DNA from: Saprospiraceae bacterium UBA2329
GTDB taxonomy: Bacteria > Bacteroidota > Bacteroidia > Chitinophagales > Saprospiraceae
Direction of reading: 5' to 3'
Assembly (NCBI GenBank): GCA_002344975.1
Contig: DDUV01000057.1
Span: 1 to 64,000, forward strand
Length of the DNA stretch: 64,000 nt
The notes under the pieces are model-generated. The model was not told where the DNA came from. It did no database searches and was given only the letters and a program-made list of their open reading frames with translations. This document shows positions 4,978 to 64,000 of the stretch, piece after piece (position 1 is the first letter of the stretch; each line of letters starts with the position of its first letter). The translations under genes and the position numbers were made by a program.

Positions 4978-5054
<77 letters not shown>

Positions 5055-26051: not shown

Positions 26052-28219
<2,168 letters not shown>

Positions 28220-28223
<4 letters not shown>

Positions 28224-32357: not shown

Positions 32358-33448
32358 CTCTTACCCGCTTCAATACCATGCTTGGCCGGGTCTTTCAGCC
32401 TGTCCCGAAGGGTAGAAAGCGCCACCACATCGGCTTGAGTCAGTACCTTGAATTTTGCATTCAGGATAGCGTCCAGTTCCGCGCCGGCCTCGGCTGCTGT
32501 ATGCCAGAAGCTCGTTTCGGCCTGAGTCAGATCAGATACGATGCGGGTTTTCATGGTTTGGAGCGGCTGTTCAAAGAGTGCGTCAGGACTGCTTTGCGCA
32601 TTGATTTTGCTCAGCAAATCTTTACAAACGCCGCTGCCGAGCATACAATGCCCGCCGTAATCCCAAGTCTGAATCTGCCAGGCCGGGAAGAAATACTCGA
32701 TGCTGTCGTCGGGGAAGGCGGCAATTTGGAGGTCCATAAAAATGTCATCCTGTACGCCTTTGGTTTTTTTGGAAAGAGCCAGCCACTGCCGATAATCCAA
32801 AAAGAGGTAGTACGCGGTCCCCTCGGCCACCAATTGCGGCTGGAAGCCCGTGAACAGCTCCGCCAGCCAGAACATGTCGGGCATATCCTCGGCAGAAGTA
32901 GGCGGAATGCGCCGTTGCAGCACCTCGTTGATGGTGTCGCGCAGGGCCGTACTTTGTTCCAGCAGGCGGCTCAGGTCGGCTTCGTTGCGGGTAGCGGCCC
33001 AGTTGCGGCGGTGTTGGTTGATGCTCTCCACGAGCGGCTGTCCGAGCATGGCTGTGGCGCGTTTTTGCAGGAGGGCGCGGGTGGCGGGCGAGTTTTGGGA
33101 GGCGTCAAAAATGAGTCCTCCGCCATACACCCAGCCCGTTTGGCCGGAGGAGGTTTTCACCTTGATCCAGGGTTCGTCAAAAGTGATACCGCGCAAAGTG
33201 ACCCGCGTGGTGAAATCGCTCACTTCGCCCAGGTCTTCCAGTTTGGCGCCTTTGGGCAGGGTGGCCACGATGACGCCTTTTTCGCCGGGCGTTTCGCGCA
33301 TGCGGAGGTCGGACACGGCCGTTTCAAACTGCACCGGCCCTTTGTCGGTCATGGTTTCGGTAGAGGCGGCCTGTTCTGCGCCGGCATTTTTGGGGCGACA
33401 GCCGAACAGCAGGGCGGCAGGTATCAGCAATAGAAGTAAGGTACGCAT
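32348..33448 (-). CDS. Hypothetical lipoprotein with SH3b-like domain
   Basis: MRTLLLLLIPAALLFGC lipobox; an SH3-like stretch (MRETPGEKGVIVATLPKGAKLEDLGEV). Confidence 0.5.
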   Translation of the reverse strand: MRTLLLLLIPAALLFGCRPKNAGAEQAASTETMTDKGPVQFETAVSDLRMRETPGEKGVIVATLPKGAKLEDLGEVSDFTTRVTLRGITFDEPWIKVKTSSGQTGWVYGGGLIFDASQNSPATRALLQKRATAMLGQPLVESINQHRRNWAATRNEADLSRLLEQSTALRDTINEVLQRRIPPTSAEDMPDMFWLAELFTGFQPQLVAEGTAYYLFLDYRQWLALSKKTKGVQDDIFMDLQIAAFPDDSIEYFFPAWQIQTWDYGGHCMLGSGVCKDLLSKINAQSSPDALFEQPLQTMKTRIVSDLTQAETSFWHTAAEAGAELDAILNAKFKVLTQADVVALSTLRDRLKDPAKHGIEAGKRNG

Positions 33449-33610
33449 GATGTGATTGTTTATTGAAATTGGTTGGAATGTTCCGGGCGACAGGCAAAGC
33501 GGAATAGTAAGAAGTCAAAAAAGTATTCGATACTTTCCTGAACACTCTAAGTTAGTAATCAGCACCGCGCCACACGCGCGGCAAGCATCAGCAATCAGCA
33601 CATCTACACA

Positions 33611-34129
33611 TTAGAAATCCTTTTTGCCCATCAGTATTTTGAAATCAATTTTGCCCTGCATCAGCTTCAGGTGCTCCACTACGGCTACGGCCCGGATAAG
33701 GCGGGTTTCGGCAGTTTTCGGCGAGCCGACGTAATAGAGCATAGTGCGCAACTTGCCGGGCGTGAGGGCGTGCAGACAGCGATGGCCCTCCTCGTCTTGT
33801 CGCAGCAATTCCTCCAACTCTTCGGGCATGGGCAGGCCGTATTCGCTGTCGTCTTTCCACAGGGTGACCTCTAACGGTGAGCCGATTTTGATGCGGAGCT
33901 GATCGCGCAGTTTTTTGTTCACATTGATAAAAAACGCCCCCTCGCCTTTGGGCATCAGCGCGCACTGAAAAGGCTTGCTGCCGTTGAGGATGCACACCAC
34001 GCGGCGCTTGTTGCCCTCCACAAAGACCTGCCCGATGGCGGCCGGCACTACAAAGTGATGCCCCCACAACGCCGAGTCGAAGTCCTCGAGCAGGGAAGTG
34101 AATTGAACGGCAGATTCGGGTGCTTGCAT
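33611..34129 (-). CDS. YdeI/OmpD-associated family protein (DUF1905 + DUF1801-like)
   Basis: …HHFVVPAAIGQ…CILNGSKPFQCALMPKGEGAFFINVNKKLR…; 172 aa. Confidence 0.5.
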   Translation of the reverse strand: MQAPESAVQFTSLLEDFDSALWGHHFVVPAAIGQVFVEGNKRRVVCILNGSKPFQCALMPKGEGAFFINVNKKLRDQLRIKIGSPLEVTLWKDDSEYGLPMPEELEELLRQDEEGHRCLHALTPGKLRTMLYYVGSPKTAETRLIRAVAVVEHLKLMQGKIDFKILMGKKDF

Positions 34130-34276
34130 GTGGTTGAGAACAAGTTGAACTTCAAAGTTCGGATTCTTTGTGGTATCTTTGTTCCTAATAATGAAAAAAA
34201 CTCAATTTGTTTTATGAAAACATACCCAAAGACGGTTGCGGAATTTTTTTCTCAAACGCATATCTAATTATCTGCT

Positions 34277-35017
34277 ATGCATAAGACCCGCAATAGTGCG
34301 ATCCTGATAGGATTATTTTTATCAAGGTTTGATGAAGATGGCCTTAACGCACTTGGCTTTAGCGGATTTTGGGAAGCATTCAATACGTTAGGATATGCCA
34401 TAGGAGTGAAGCCTTCCTCTATAAAAAATTACAGAGACGAGTTTGATCCGTATTATCCAAATACAAGAAAAGGCTGGCACAAAAGAAGCCTTAGAGACTA
34501 TTGCAAGGTCGTCATGGAGGAATATGCGAGTTATGATTTACACTCATTTACTGAGATTATCAAGGAGTTATTGATTAATAACTATGAAGTTGAACGAATA
34601 GAGGAAATGATTATTGATAAGAAAAGTACAAGCTCAATTGCGCAAAGACTTATAACAGGCCAATCCGCGGAAGCCTATTTCAAGGAGAATTACTTGACAG
34701 TGCCACAGTTCCAGAATTACGCCTTTAAAGACACTACTTTGCTGGGATGTGGCTTCGATTTCCTCCTTACACGTCAAACTGATTTTTTTTGTATTGAAGT
34801 GAAAGGGCTTCACAGCAAATCAGGTACGATATCGCTGACGGAGAAGGAGTATCAAATGGCTGAAAAGCTGAGCGAGCATTTTTGCTTGTATGTTGTGTCT
34901 AATTTTTGCGAGCAACCTATTGCCAATGTAATAATCAATCCCTTAGAATCTGGGTTGGATTTTGTAAAAGATGAGAGGCTTATTACTGTTGTGTCATTTC
35001 AAACCTACATAAGATGA
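34277..35017 (+). CDS. Predicted PD-(D/E)xK nuclease, DUF3883 (NO VEIN C-terminal)-like, gene 1 of low-GC island
   Basis: C-terminal half …GCGFDFLLTRQTDFFCIEVKGLHSKSGTISLTEKEYQMAEKLSEHFCLYVVSN… gives D…(E)VK plus the downstream 'LT.NE…A' pattern, characteristic of DUF3883 restriction-endonuclease-like folds. AT-rich codon usage unlike the flanking DNA. Confidence 0.5.
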   Translation: MHKTRNSAILIGLFLSRFDEDGLNALGFSGFWEAFNTLGYAIGVKPSSIKNYRDEFDPYYPNTRKGWHKRSLRDYCKVVMEEYASYDLHSFTEIIKELLINNYEVERIEEMIIDKKSTSSIAQRLITGQSAEAYFKENYLTVPQFQNYAFKDTTLLGCGFDFLLTRQTDFFCIEVKGLHSKSGTISLTEKEYQMAEKLSEHFCLYVVSNFCEQPIANVIINPLESGLDFVKDERLITVVSFQTYIR

Positions 35018-35775
35018 ATGTAGATAATCAGTCCAACTATACATTGGCCTTTGAGGATGGCTGGGATGCGCTTCAGCCTCAAATCGTCAATGATCAGGAT
35101 TTTTTAAAAGCTGTTTTATTGATGCTTGATTTGATGAAACAAGATAAAAATATTGACCCCAGCAGATATTGTGATGAAAACGGCAATTTGAAAAGTTACG
35201 TCGAACTGTGTAAGTATAAAAAACTTCAGTTGGTCTATAATCCTGAATATCCAACATGGAAGATCATTCATACGCTACTCTCCCAAGCAATAAATGAAGG
35301 TAAAGCAGGGGCCGTTGCATATCATTTGGTTGGAGCAACTTTGCAATTGAGATTCCCGGACATTGAAATCTCAAATGAATCAGCGAATACCGCAGATCAG
35401 CCAACAGGAAGATCGGGCGATTTCACTATTGGCGACACTGTTTTTCATGTCACGGTTCATCCAATGACCTCTGTTTTTGATAAGTGCAGGGAGAATATCA
35501 AGGATGGGCTTAAAGCATTTTTGCTGGTTCCAGATTCCAGTTTGACGGGTTCTCGGATGTGGGCATTAAAAGATGGCGTGGAGCTTTTTGCGGTAGAATC
35601 TTTAGAGTCGTTCATTTCTCAAAACATTGAGGAAATTAGTGCATTTGATCCTAAATACCGGAAAAACAGCCTTTTCAACTTGATCTATTTGTACAATCAA
35701 AGGGTTGACCAAGCTGAAACAGATAAGTCGCTCATGATCGAATTACCCTCCAATTTGAAGGTGTCAAATGGCTGA
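35014..35775 (+). CDS. Hypothetical protein, gene 2 of low-GC island (no recognisable family)
   Basis: 253-aa ORF. Its start overlaps gene 1 by 4 nt (ATGA) and its end overlaps gene 3 by 8 nt, indicating translational coupling. No motif I can assign. Confidence 0.5.
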   Translation: MNVDNQSNYTLAFEDGWDALQPQIVNDQDFLKAVLLMLDLMKQDKNIDPSRYCDENGNLKSYVELCKYKKLQLVYNPEYPTWKIIHTLLSQAINEGKAGAVAYHLVGATLQLRFPDIEISNESANTADQPTGRSGDFTIGDTVFHVTVHPMTSVFDKCRENIKDGLKAFLLVPDSSLTGSRMWALKDGVELFAVESLESFISQNIEEISAFDPKYRKNSLFNLIYLYNQRVDQAETDKSLMIELPSNLKVSNG

Positions 35776-36175
35776 TGTTTTCACTCCCGAAAAACGTAGC
35801 GAGGTTATGCGAAGAGTAAAGTCTTCCCGCAACGCATCCACGGAACTGAAACTGATACAGTTTTTCAAAAATCATAAAATTAAAGGATGGAGGAGAAGTT
35901 ATCCTCTCGTTGGGAAGCCTGATTTTGTCTTTCCTAAACAAAGAATTGTCATATTCGCAGATGGTTGCTTTTGGCATGGCCACGATTGCCGAAATACTAA
36001 ACCCGCTCAGAATCGCACATATTGGGAATCCAAGCGAGACAGGAACATTGCCAGAGATATCTTGGTAACCAATGCTTTACAAAAAAAAGGATGGACTGTA
36101 ATTCGTATATGGGAATGTGAATTGAAAAAAGGTAGCTACGAATCTCGTTTGCTCAGCGCGTTACAATCGGATTAG
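35768..36175 (+). CDS. vsr: Very-short-patch-repair (Vsr) DNA mismatch endonuclease
   Basis: MADVFTPEKRSEVMRRVKSSRN…GKPDFVFPKQRIVIFADGCFWHGHDC…TVIRIWECELKK reproduces the hallmark Vsr motifs of E. coli Vsr (MADV…, GRPDFV, HGCFWHHH, W..K…N..RD, WRVLIVWEC). Confidence 0.9.
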   Translation: MADVFTPEKRSEVMRRVKSSRNASTELKLIQFFKNHKIKGWRRSYPLVGKPDFVFPKQRIVIFADGCFWHGHDCRNTKPAQNRTYWESKRDRNIARDILVTNALQKKGWTVIRIWECELKKGSYESRLLSALQSD

Positions 36176-36219
36176 AATTGATTTGATCTCCCCCAAAACA
36201 TCGTACCTTTGCCATCCTT

Positions 36220-37623
36220 ATGGCAAAAAAAACTTTCATAGCGGAGCAGGTGCGCATCACCGGCATAGCAGAAAAAGGGCGGGGCGTAGGCCGAGACGCT
36301 GAGGGACGCGTATTTTTTGTACCCGATACCGTGCCCGGCGATGTAGTGAATGTGCTGACCCTGCGCAAGAAAAAGGGATTTTTTGAAGGCGTGGTGCATG
36401 CCGTGCTGGAAAGCTCGCCGGAGCGTGTGCAGCCCTTTTGCCGGCATTTCGACCTCTGCGGCGGATGCAGTTGGCAGCACTTAGACTATGCCGCCCAATT
36501 GCACCACAAACAACTGATGGTAGAAAACGCCCTGTTGCGCATCGGTAAATTGGAAGTAGAAGATTTTCAGCCCATCACAGGCGCTGATCCCAATGTATAT
36601 TACCGAAATAAATTAGAGTTTTCCTTCTCCAACCGCCGCTGGCTCACCAAAGAGGAAGTTGACTCTGAGGTGACCAACCTGGAGGATGTACTGGGATTTC
36701 ACAAATCGGGAGCCTTCGACAAAGCCATTGATATTGAACACTGCTGGCTGCAACCCGATCCTTCCAACGCCATCCGTCTGGCCGCCAAACGTATCGCTGT
36801 AGCGCAGGGTCTTGCCTTCTGGGATGCCCGCGACAACAAGGGTTTTGTGCGCAATCTCATGCTGCGCGTGGCCACTACTGGGCAGGTCATGGCGCTGATG
36901 AGTTTTTCCGAAAATCGCAAAAAAGCCATCTCCGCTTTTTTGGATGCATTGCAGGAGGCCTGCCCGCAGATCACCTCGCTGTACTATTGCATCAATCACA
37001 AGGTCAATGATTTTATGTTCGACCTCGACATGATCCTGTATCGCGGCGAGCCTGCTATCGAGGAGCAGTTGGGCCATGTACGGTGCCGCATCGGGCCGAA
37101 ATCTTTTTTCCAGACCAACACCAGGCAGGCTAAGGTACTGTTCGATACGGCTGCCGAGTTTGCCGGGCTGCAAGGCCACGAAAACGTGTATGATCTCTAT
37201 ACCGGAATCGGCAGTATAGCGTTGTATCTGGCGGGGCGTTGCCGACAGGTGACGGGCATTGAGGAAATAGCCGCCGCCATTGACGATGCGCGCGACAACG
37301 CGGCCCTCAACGGCATTGATAATTGCACTTTTTACGCCGGAGACGTGAAGGACATGCTCACGCCGGAGTTTGCTGAAAAGCATGGCAAACCCGATGTGCT
37401 CATCACCGATCCGCCGCGGGCGGGCATGCACCCCAAAGTGGTGGACATCCTGCTGGAATTGGCCGCGCCGCGCATCGTGTATGTGAGTTGCAATGCCGCC
37501 ACCCAGGCCCGCGATCTGCAATTGCTCTCGGCAAAATACCGCGTGCTCAAAGTTCGCCCGGTGGACATGTTTCCGCATACGCACCATGTGGAGAGCGTGG
37601 CACTGCTGGAGCTTCAGGGGTGA
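36220..37623 (+). CDS. rlmD: 23S rRNA (uracil-C5)-methyltransferase RlmD/RumA family (TRAM + [4Fe-4S] + class I MTase)
   Basis: TRAM-like N-terminus, the Cys cluster CRHFDLCGGCSWQHLDY, and a C-terminal MTase with DPPRAGM. Stop TGA is embedded in the GGGTGAGT repeat. Confidence 0.85.
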   Translation: MAKKTFIAEQVRITGIAEKGRGVGRDAEGRVFFVPDTVPGDVVNVLTLRKKKGFFEGVVHAVLESSPERVQPFCRHFDLCGGCSWQHLDYAAQLHHKQLMVENALLRIGKLEVEDFQPITGADPNVYYRNKLEFSFSNRRWLTKEEVDSEVTNLEDVLGFHKSGAFDKAIDIEHCWLQPDPSNAIRLAAKRIAVAQGLAFWDARDNKGFVRNLMLRVATTGQVMALMSFSENRKKAISAFLDALQEACPQITSLYYCINHKVNDFMFDLDMILYRGEPAIEEQLGHVRCRIGPKSFFQTNTRQAKVLFDTAAEFAGLQGHENVYDLYTGIGSIALYLAGRCRQVTGIEEIAAAIDDARDNAALNGIDNCTFYAGDVKDMLTPEFAEKHGKPDVLITDPPRAGMHPKVVDILLELAAPRIVYVSCNAATQARDLQLLSAKYRVLKVRPVDMFPHTHHVESVALLELQG

Positions 37624-37677
37624 GTGGGTGAGGGGTGAGTGGGTGAAGGGTGAGTATGTGAGTGGTGAGCAACCCGA
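37617..37677 (+). repeat. GGGTGAGT octamer tandem repeat, locus C
   Basis: CAGGGGTGAGTGGGTGAGGGGTGAGTGGGTGAAGGGTGAGTATGTGAGTGGTGAGC immediately at the rlmD 3' end. Confidence 0.9.
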
Positions 37678-39007: not shown

Positions 39008-39520
39008 TCAATCGTATAGAAACGGCTCGTCGCCCTCTGCCATTCGGCGAACATTTTCAAGCACCTGATTCATATATTTTTTATAAAACACTTTTGCGAA
39101 AAGCCATTGAAGGGGTATAAAAACAAAGCCTTTAGCGTGAATGGTGTAATCGTAATTGATTTGTATTTTATTGGGCGAAAGCTCCGTCGTTGTCCATTCA
39201 AAAGTGAACTGCCAAATATCCAGCATCCACGACTTGAAATTGCCCACTTCTGCTTTCCAATATTTGTTTTCAATGCGCTCAATAATCTTGTCGGTTGATA
39301 CCTCGCCGCCTTTAAAAGTTAATGATTTGTCGGCATAAACATTTTTTATAGAACCGACTTTGCCCCAACCCTCATCATTGGTTGTTTTGGTGACTTTCGG
39401 CATCAGTCCGAACCCTGTATGCACTTTGGTAACATCGCAAAGTATGGGCGCTTTAAAAGCTCGTTCAAGCGAGCAATGGTAAATGGCTGTGGTGTGTATT
39501 TTAAAATCCATTTTATTCAT
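39008..39520 (-). CDS. Hypothetical protein, SRPBCC (START/Bet v1)-like fold suspected; AT-richer than its neighbours
   Basis: 170-aa ORF. Its stop abuts the M23 gene stop (convergent, 0-bp gap). Alternating beta/alpha pattern; no catalytic motif. Confidence 0.4.
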   Translation of the reverse strand: MNKMDFKIHTTAIYHCSLERAFKAPILCDVTKVHTGFGLMPKVTKTTNDEGWGKVGSIKNVYADKSLTFKGGEVSTDKIIERIENKYWKAEVGNFKSWMLDIWQFTFEWTTTELSPNKIQINYDYTIHAKGFVFIPLQWLFAKVFYKKYMNQVLENVRRMAEGDEPFLYD

Positions 39521-63632: not shown

Positions 63633-63706
63633 AGCCCTTTAGCCCAACCGGCAGAGGCAATGGTTTCAGAAGCCATTCAGTTTCGGTTCGAATCCGAAAG
63701 GGGCTA
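63633..63706 (+). ncRNA. Atypical tRNA-like element (anticodon CAG but class-I architecture); possible pseudo-tRNA
   Basis: Hand fold: acceptor AGCCCTT/AGGGGCT, a 3-bp D stem with an 11-nt loop, anticodon arm ATGGT-TTCAGAA-GCCAT, a 5-nt variable loop, canonical T arm TTCGG-TTCGAAT-CCGAA. A Leu(CAG) tRNA should carry a long variable arm, so its function is doubtful. Confidence 0.3.
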
Positions 63707-63715
63707 CCTGTATAT

Positions 63716-63788
63716 GGTGACATGGCGCAACGGCAAGCGCACCCGACTGTCTATCGGAAGGTTGTGGGTTCAAATCCCATTGTCACCG
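63716..63788 (+). tRNA. tRNA-Asp (anticodon GTC)
   Basis: Acceptor GGTGACA/TGTCACC, D arm GCGC-AACGGCAA-GCGC, anticodon loop CTGTCTA, T arm GTGGG-TTCAAAT-CCCAT, discriminator G. Position 37 reads T, which is unusual. Confidence 0.7.
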
Positions 63789-63796
63789 CTTGTAAT

Positions 63797-63867
63797 AGCC
63801 CGGTCGTTCAATGGCAGGACGGGGGAATACGAATCCCCAAACGAAGGTTCGACTCCTTCCCTGGCTT
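63797..63867 (+). tRNA. tRNA-Arg (anticodon ACG)
   Basis: D arm GTTC-AATGGCA-GGAC, anticodon arm GGGGA-ATACGAA-TCCCC, T arm GAAGG-TTCGACT-CCTTC. The acceptor AGCCCGG/CCTGGCT has one C-U mismatch, so boundaries are ±1-2 nt. Confidence 0.6.
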
Positions 63868-63874
63868 CGTAGCA

Positions 63875-63945
63875 GTGAGAGTGGTTTAATGGCAGAACGC
63901 CGGTATGCCAAGCCGGAGACAGGAGTTCGATTCTCCTCTTTCGCT
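63875..63945 (+). tRNA. tRNA-Gly (anticodon GCC)
   Basis: Acceptor GTGAGAG/CTTTCGC (two G-U pairs), D arm GTTT-AATGGCA-GAAC, anticodon arm CCGGT-ATGCCAA-GCCGG, T arm AGGAG-TTCGATT-CTCCT. Confidence 0.6.
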
Positions 63946-64000
63946 CTGTATTTTGCGCGGTGGTGTAACAAGCAACACACGGCTCTCATAAGGCCGTAGA

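Follow-up and report, generated by a model that had tools for sequence, protein, structure and literature searches.

A short DUF4928 nuclease homologue, probably disarmed and retained, behind a methylase stump in a Vsr operon of a Saprospiraceae bacterium

The closest described relatives of the locus considered here are operons in which a methyltransferase gene, a gene of the DUF4928 family and a vsr gene follow one another in that order, as on an SGI1-related island of Marinobacter (PMC9035990). The same order occurs on RefSeq plasmids of Pseudomonas and Enterobacter, and in our survey of 80 DUF4928 loci, drawn from contigs of one genome per species, a full-length C5-cytosine methyltransferase open reading frame (ORF) lay directly upstream on the same strand, mostly overlapping, in 59; a Vsr gene was adjacent in at least 22 of these 59, and the methylase was split upstream of DUF4928 at three of the 80 loci and lay downstream at two. 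In this widespread type II operon, made up of methylase (M), restriction endonuclease (R) and Vsr (V), DUF4928 is presumptively the R component, an enzyme of the PD-(D/E)xK kind. Vsr is the companion of C5-cytosine methylation, and loss of the methylase from a restriction–modification (R-M) system whose nuclease gene is kept is normally lethal. Relatives of the methylase in the PDB (M.HhaI and M.HaeIII) align with it only in the conserved catalytic half, which gives no indication of its specificity. We describe here a locus at which such an operon has been remodelled. It lies within a stretch of 64,000 nucleotides (64 kb) of Saprospiraceae bacterium UBA2329 (assembly GCA_002344975.1, contig DDUV01000057.1, positions 1 to 64,000), referred to throughout as the window, where a gene at 35014–35775 on the + strand encodes a short DUF4928 protein of 253 amino acids, designated R', and follows a gene of the NOV_C/DUF3883 family that occupies the position of the methylase gene. 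We consider it probable that R' is a disarmed DUF4928 nuclease that has been retained and is probably still functional.

The R' gene begins with an ATG that overlaps the TGA of the NOV_C gene (34277–35017, + strand; 246 amino acids; Pfam NOV_C/DUF3883, E 1.6e-12) in the sequence ATGA at 35014–35017, and the ATG of vsr (35768–36175, + strand; 135 amino acids) sits 8 nucleotides ahead of the R' stop (ATGGCTGA). The vsr product, a very-short-patch-repair T:G mismatch endonuclease, scores 109.4 bits against TIGR00632, above the cut-off of 97.85 and thus at equivalog level, and matches Pfam PF03852 too. NOV_C, R' and vsr together form the GC minimum of the window (0.37–0.43 versus approximately 0.53). 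An earlier inspection of this DNA made without database searches (the sequence-only reading) had reported the 253-amino-acid ORF, with its sequence, and its overlaps on both sides, and had called the three genes tightly coupled; reading the ORF confirmed the former, and the overlaps ATGA and ATGGCTGA show the coupling to be real. That reading also held that R' belongs to no recognisable family, which proved wrong. R' matches Pfam PF16280 (DUF4928) with 208.8 bits (E 1.5e-61; gathering cut-off 25) and the PADLOC model REase_II (PDLC03543; E 5.7e-33), confident matches to a restriction family that is defined by context, not by biochemistry; such a match was one of the outcomes by which that reading would, on its own terms, be refuted. 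A database search returned 233 relatives at E<=1e-3, and this number together with the Pfam E value of R' shows that the ORF is not a chance one. NCBIfam gave no match for the R' protein. In the searchable literature DUF4928 appears only as an annotation, ‘a DUF4928 family protein’, and GenBank annotations are alike. Seven viral or proviral contigs in IMG/VR (L177–L183) also carry DUF4928 relatives, with 39–45% identity.

The family match is a partial one. Residues 64–243 of R' (35203–35742, + strand), the conserved DUF4928 core, correspond to profile positions 124–306 of 306 only, whereas P0004, a protein 89% identical in the core, matches PF16280 over positions 1–306. Likewise, PDLC03543 spans long forms at positions 8–322 but is matched by short forms only in its C-terminal half (R' residues 80–246 to model positions 153–322 of 331). 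The relatives fall into two length classes: a long class of 300–340 amino acids, comprising about 97 of the best 120 relatives, aligns only to the C-terminal ~72% of R', and a short class of 17 relatives (242–257 amino acids) aligns across the whole of it. The partial profile match was overlooked by the sequence-only reading, as were the methylase stump of 12 codons and the methylase-bearing allele described below.

The form from which the window's operon derives is seen in L005 and L006, metagenomic contigs assembled independently of each other, which have the window's flanks and carry M of 391 amino acids, R of 322 amino acids and Vsr; flank identity is 94.7% over window positions 33071–34249 and 91% over 35294–37139. 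The window follows L005 colinearly through the methylase ATG and the first 12 codons (ATGAAAACATACCCAAAGACGGTTGCGGAATTTTTT, 34214–34249), after which L005 continues with AGIG of motif I and the window with SQTHI and a stop, the NOV_C start following nine bases on. The whole stump (MKTYPKTVAEFF, then SQTHI and stop; 34214–34267, + strand) was identified by base-by-base comparison with L005 and by tblastn with residues 1–13 of the L005 methylase, and the same stump recurs in L001 and L173. Because colinearity extends to codon 12, the ancestor of the window allele was an M-R-V operon whose methylase gave way to NOV_C. The 8-nucleotide overlap of R and Vsr has been carried over unaltered from the ordinary operon as in L005. 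The adjacent cognate methyltransferase of a type II system is thus present in L005 and absent from the window, and a six-frame motif scan of the whole 64 kb found no ORF with cytosine-methylase motifs. A candidate promoter for the operon, TATCTTTG (34174–34181, + strand), lies 33 nucleotides before the stump ATG and was recognized by consensus match only, to TAnnTTTG, which we take to be the -7 box of Bacteroidota (Bacteroidetes) promoters; a scan for sigma-70 promoters and terminators was uninformative in the AT-rich island.

Three haplotypes are distinguished at the site: M-R-V in L005, stump-NOV_C-R'-V in L001–L004 and L173, and that of the window, which resembles the latter and is chimeric inside R'. 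The window is 98–100% identical to L001 over the greater part of NOV_C and as far as about codon 120 of R', then enters a recombination patch (35381–35680, + strand) which, in sliding comparison, is 100% identical to the full-length R of L005/L006 and 63–80% identical to L001–L004; from about 35681 rightwards L001 and L005 are themselves 100% identical to each other. Given this mosaic, methylase-bearing and NOV_C-bearing alleles must coexist in one population and recombine inside R. The chimera is not an assembly artefact, since P0001, a protein 98% identical to R', was found in other samples. Strain variation is also evident nearby: a hypervariable patch (33501–33600), between an SH3_3-domain gene and a DUF1905/OmdA gene, has 74% identity to L001–L004 where the 100-nucleotide windows on either side have 99–100%. 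About 6 kb upstream of the island, a further strain-variable spot has an AbiEii-family gene with an upstream ORF in L003 (1–1203) where the window (26052–28223) and L001 have Peptidase_S46.

The second change to the operon lies within R' itself. Residues 1–63 are encoded at 35014–35202 (+ strand), and of these approximately 5–57 correspond, in diverged form, to the initial ~57 residues of the long forms (sharing FExxW and LxxLxxLK; hhalign P 4e-5, probability 42–70%). R' then skips long-form residues ~58–130, about 70 residues, with a scar that both alignment and hhalign place near codons 52–62. The change is an internal deletion, because the short N-termini are colinear with the long ones; for the same reason a 5'-truncated gene with a foreign N-terminus was ruled out. 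The deleted segment, near-invariant among 93 long forms, holds the most conserved stretch of the family, GGxQIKGASG...FAKEGGRTNRGG (GGxQIKGASGxAVAxILxxFGExRPFAKEGGRTNRGG). In addition, all three alleles of the window's clade have two near-invariant helix residues replaced, a Q by Y103 and a K by T109. A different arrangement is seen in L066 (4411–6543), where NOV_C is inverted between a methylase stump of 95–99 residues and an apparently full-length DUF4928 ORF (profile 1–317) that deviates at 27 conserved positions, i.e. an R gene without methylase and without the internal deletion.

Our working model is that the M-R-V operon was remodelled by replacement of M from codon 13 onwards with the NOV_C gene, which, standing behind the old M start, would probably be expressed from the old M promoter. 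The deletion, possibly together with Y103 and T109, would disarm R, so that unmethylated host DNA is no longer cleaved, and it is this disarming that would make loss of M survivable. R' would still be made, through translational coupling from NOV_C to R' to Vsr, and would keep a role. Of the roles that can be proposed, the likeliest is that of a nuclease or DNA-binding core acting with NOV_C, of which it may be a partner subunit, in a methylase-independent module; R' might alternatively act as a dominant-negative subunit against a resident long R during allele replacement, or might merely keep vsr translated.

The distribution of the short form bears on whether it has been kept for a reason. 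Every short form whose contig could be read sits behind NOV_C (the window, L001–L004, L173, L007/L008, L009 and L010, making four haplotype groups), and these come from genomic contexts and bacterial orders that are unrelated, at least three in number; another six short forms each have a NOV_C homologue on a contig of identical length, which is suggestive only. The sequence-only reading had proposed asking whether R' homologues always travel with DUF3883 and Vsr genes. For the short subfamily the association with NOV_C and Vsr stands, but ordinary DUF4928 genes accompany a methyltransferase (59 of 80 loci), NOV_C taking the methylase's stead at only six of the 80. All 17 short forms are intact ORFs, with no frameshift or stop. 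The ratio of non-synonymous to synonymous substitution rates (dN/dS), calculated by the Nei–Gojobori method from few pairs and with recombination ignored, was 0.05–0.13 in the clade of 248-amino-acid forms (L007, L009, L010), whose members occupy unrelated genomic contexts and have synonymous sites near saturation. It was 0.10–0.28 for the short-specific N-terminus (the two pairs with estimable dS), and in the window's clade 0.19–0.24 for R', 0.13–0.22 for NOV_C and 0.05–0.07 for Vsr (two informative comparisons). The short form is under purifying selection (dN/dS 0.05–0.24).

These values argue against an interpretation in which R' is functionless, the dying leftover of a destroyed R-M system whose frame is kept open only by coupled translation of vsr. 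Such coupling would keep the frame but not the amino acids, and dN/dS is low even in the window's clade and, in the 248-amino-acid clade, across saturated synonymous divergence; moreover, gene conversion from long alleles cannot refresh the short-specific N-terminus, where constraint is also seen. The same interpretation nevertheless accounts directly for the loss of the cognate M and of the family's most conserved 70 residues, and it gains from a test of 119 alignment columns at least 95% conserved in the 93 long forms, at which a long sequence deviates on average 1.4 times. Other NOV_C-linked DUF4928 remnants, truncated at many differing points and scattered over at least six NOV_C clades, deviate at 15–72 of these 119 columns. 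In favour of function, nearly all deviations in the 248-amino-acid clade are N-terminal or at the edges of the deletion, the sole core one being G168R in L010. On balance, we think it unlikely that R' is a mere relic.

Several observations do count against a disarmed but retained R'. Core deviations number three in the window, whereas L001 and L173 have 9–10, among them a change from H to Y within the FHVTV strand, and the window's total is as low as three only because of its L005-derived patch; this suggests that the window's clade is under relaxed constraint. The low core dN/dS could partly reflect repeated gene conversion by functional long alleles, as has occurred in the window. L093, which carries a close NOV_C relative, has lost the gene wholly and lacks V as well, so that NOV_C is not strictly dependent on R'. 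No clean (D/E)xK can be read in R', in which the strand reads TVFHVT, and loss of activity through the deletion or through Y103/T109 is itself something that we infer. Finally, a protecting methylase could possibly lie unlinked, outside the 64 kb.

That last point leads to a further alternative, in which R' is an ordinary active restriction endonuclease and another locus in the genome supplies a second cytosine methyltransferase, of matching specificity, that protects the host. The strong constraint on Vsr is as expected if 5-methylcytosine (m5C) persists in the genome, the conserved core residues are kept in the 248-amino-acid clade bar G168R, and several methylase genes are found at some related loci (L033, L055, L056, L100 and L139 each have more than one). 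Yet the stump-NOV_C-R'-Vsr arrangement occurs in at least three unrelated contexts and orders, and no recipient could survive such a transfer without possessing the right methylase beforehand. Reliance on a methylase from elsewhere in the genome is unlikely because loss of M beside an active R would kill the cell and because the unit has moved between hosts. The deleted segment, being near-invariant in 93 long forms, is also unlikely to be dispensable to an active enzyme, and the scan of the 64 kb revealed no methylase. We therefore regard an active R' as distinctly improbable, and a disarmed, retained R' as the better account.

The sequence-only reading had regarded R' as the likely specificity or sensor component, in effect one subunit of a defence system of three genes with the NOV_C nuclease and Vsr at its centre. 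That the short form occurs strictly together with NOV_C, and that the genes are translationally coupled, would suit such a role, as would a small clade-specific overlapping ORF found downstream of NOV_C at most of its other loci, which suggests that NOV_C normally has a partner there. What R' retains, however, is a nuclease-like core: residues 64–243 are predicted to adopt an alpha/beta nuclease-like fold, although superposition on EcoT38I-type PD-(D/E)xK enzymes gave a high rmsd and Foldseek did not confirm the likeness, and PDB sequence and profile searches with R' and its alignment returned chance matches only. The part that was lost includes a basic/polar loop, GGRTNRGG, which would be more in keeping with a DNA-contacting element. 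No sensor, NTPase or modification-reader domain was detectable in R' with Pfam, PADLOC, NCBIfam or the predicted structure, neither R' nor its partner has a modified-base reader (SRA/PUA, DUF3427 and the like), and PADLOC sees only REase and Vsr at the locus, with no further system. NOV_C, besides, has its own helical, helix-turn-helix (HTH)-like N-terminal domain. A sensor role for R' thus seems very improbable.

The NOV_C protein has two domains. The N-terminal one consists of helices only, bears the invariant motif KPxSIKNYRDEFDP..N.RKGW and had no match in the PDB; the C-terminal one is a minimal PD-(D/E)xK nuclease (E132, D161, E174-V-K176). In the searchable literature the only pertinent mentions of DUF3883 are as the catalytic domain of modification-dependent enzymes (PMC6765204) and, for archaea, as a group presumed to be type IIR (PMC10609329). 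For the protein described here, no reader domain was found that would indicate an m5C-reading type IV enzyme, a possibility thus neither supported nor excluded, and the idea of a phage-type homing endonuclease gained no support from the viral side, no NOV_C relative occurring in 2.9 million viral contigs.

We took a census of 92 NOV_C loci (80 metagenomic, four from genomes, and the DUF4928-linked ones), using hidden Markov models (HMMs) built from loci sampled for the same analysis. In one divergent methylase subfamily only the N-terminal half is aligned by the methylase HMM, and loci were therefore classified by the room between methylase and NOV_C starts. An N-terminal methylase stump lay directly upstream on the same strand at 30 of the 92 (room <250 amino acids, mostly 40–140) and an N-terminal Vsr fragment at seven, so that at least 37 of the 92 loci, from many phyla and many clades of the NOV_C tree, have NOV_C behind a methylase or Vsr stump. 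At 33 loci nothing was found upstream at HMM level, which does not mean absence: the window is among them, its stump of 12 codons being too short to detect. There was room for a complete methylase at four loci, three of which (L096, L099, L108) have motifs I–X intact; a rule that NOV_C is never preceded by a full-length methylase was accordingly discarded. The stop of the stump often overlaps or abuts the NOV_C ATG (among L089–L172, e.g. L091:4648–5962 and L128:207–1500), and in several NOV_C clades stump ends cluster between motifs IV and VI (HMM positions ~85–119). At L129 (3998–5051) two NOV_C genes, a full copy and then a second copy, stand in tandem behind a methylase stump. We found no description of the NOV_C-behind-stump pattern, and no link of DUF3883 to truncated methylases or Vsr, in the searchable literature.

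Most NOV_C genes are followed, usually through an ATGA overlap, by a small ORF of 60–82 (mostly 60–80) amino acids whose family tracks the NOV_C clade. These ORFs (e.g. L090:5741–5980, L091:5738–5962, L096:1751–1978) comprise at least five families, none with a Pfam match above threshold: the commonest is Cys-rich (KWECYLC...NYHPLC..CA...RLTYH), and others are marked by CDCD..YWEE..FHC..C, LDxKGT..T(R/K)AM.IV.E.FR, PLFEI.KPITATLTVEC and DCLKDEN. Their products may serve NOV_C as partners, as immunity proteins or as regulators.

A broader interpretation, which we put forward only tentatively and consider rather doubtful as it stands, is that NOV_C of 246–248 amino acids, usually together with a small partner ORF particular to its clade, forms a chromosomal module by which C5-methyltransferase(-R)-Vsr operons are taken over behind the methylase start, with the methylase left as a stump, and that the disarmed R' of the DUF4928 lineage persists because it serves the takeover. 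R' could then be the partner nuclease core of NOV_C or, as a dominant-negative subunit, could poison the full-length R already resident. Were the latter true, the M-R-V allele could be replaced without post-segregational killing, and this role would explain why recombination keeps the R' core identical to the co-circulating long allele. If the NOV_C-behind-stump pattern does reflect an active process, be it gene takeover or a conflict between nuclease and methylation, it would represent a new kind of interaction among defence genes.

Whatever the role of R', the locus presents natural allelic before and after states of methylase loss at one chromosomal site, the surviving nuclease gene being under selection. 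It also gives DUF4928, a Pfam family of unknown function, a concrete and testable role, that of R in a cytosine-methylase system linked to Vsr, and it marks a module of approximately 70 residues whose loss seems to make the enzyme tolerable without methylation.

Elsewhere in the window, a G-rich tandem repeat (37616–37669; unit AGGGGTGAGTGGGTG, 3.6 copies, also readable as units of 7–8 nucleotides) lies at the stop of an rlmD-like methyltransferase gene (36220–37623), whose last few bases it overlaps, and ahead of the ORF that follows. A second low-GC pocket (~0.40) at 39008–39520 (− strand) coincides with an ORF of 170 amino acids that has no Pfam match on record in syntenic contigs and may be another foreign gene. 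A single tRNA-Ala (GGC) gene is located at 4978–5054, and four clustered tRNA genes, Leu-CAG, Asp-GTC, Arg-ACG and Gly-GCC, lie at the window's end (63633–63946).

Compared with M-DUF4928-Vsr operons such as those of Pseudomonas aeruginosa plasmid pNECK1 (NZ_MK047609) and the SGI1-related islands of Marinobacter (PMC9035990), the locus in the window shares the family PF16280, the 8-nucleotide overlap of R and Vsr and the gene order, but its methyltransferase is cut to 12 codons with a NOV_C nuclease gene in its place, and its R' lacks ~70 internal residues and has Y103 and T109 for a near-invariant Q and K. The NOV_C catalytic domain belongs to the same Pfam family as those of YenY4I and McaZI (PMC6765204) and of TmtA of the Tiamat system (PADLOC), whereas the 246-amino-acid NOV_C protein carries an all-helical N-terminal domain and no PUA, SRA or DUF3427 reader or ATPase. 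R' has no detectable sequence similarity to EcoT38I (PDB 7e8r), Kpn2I, Cfr10I, NgoMIV or BamHI, and no canonical (D/E)xK triad can be read in it. In the heterodimeric restriction endonuclease R.BspD6I, a small subunit that supplies a catalytic core but does not itself recognize DNA is paired with the nickase N.BspD6I; this enzyme offers an analogy only, since BspD6I has a cognate methylase and a NOV_C-R' complex is hypothetical. As in dcm-vsr of Escherichia coli and other methyltransferase-Vsr pairs, vsr in the window stands in an operon and overlaps the gene upstream; unlike in dcm-vsr, it has no adjacent methylase, yet Vsr is strongly conserved.

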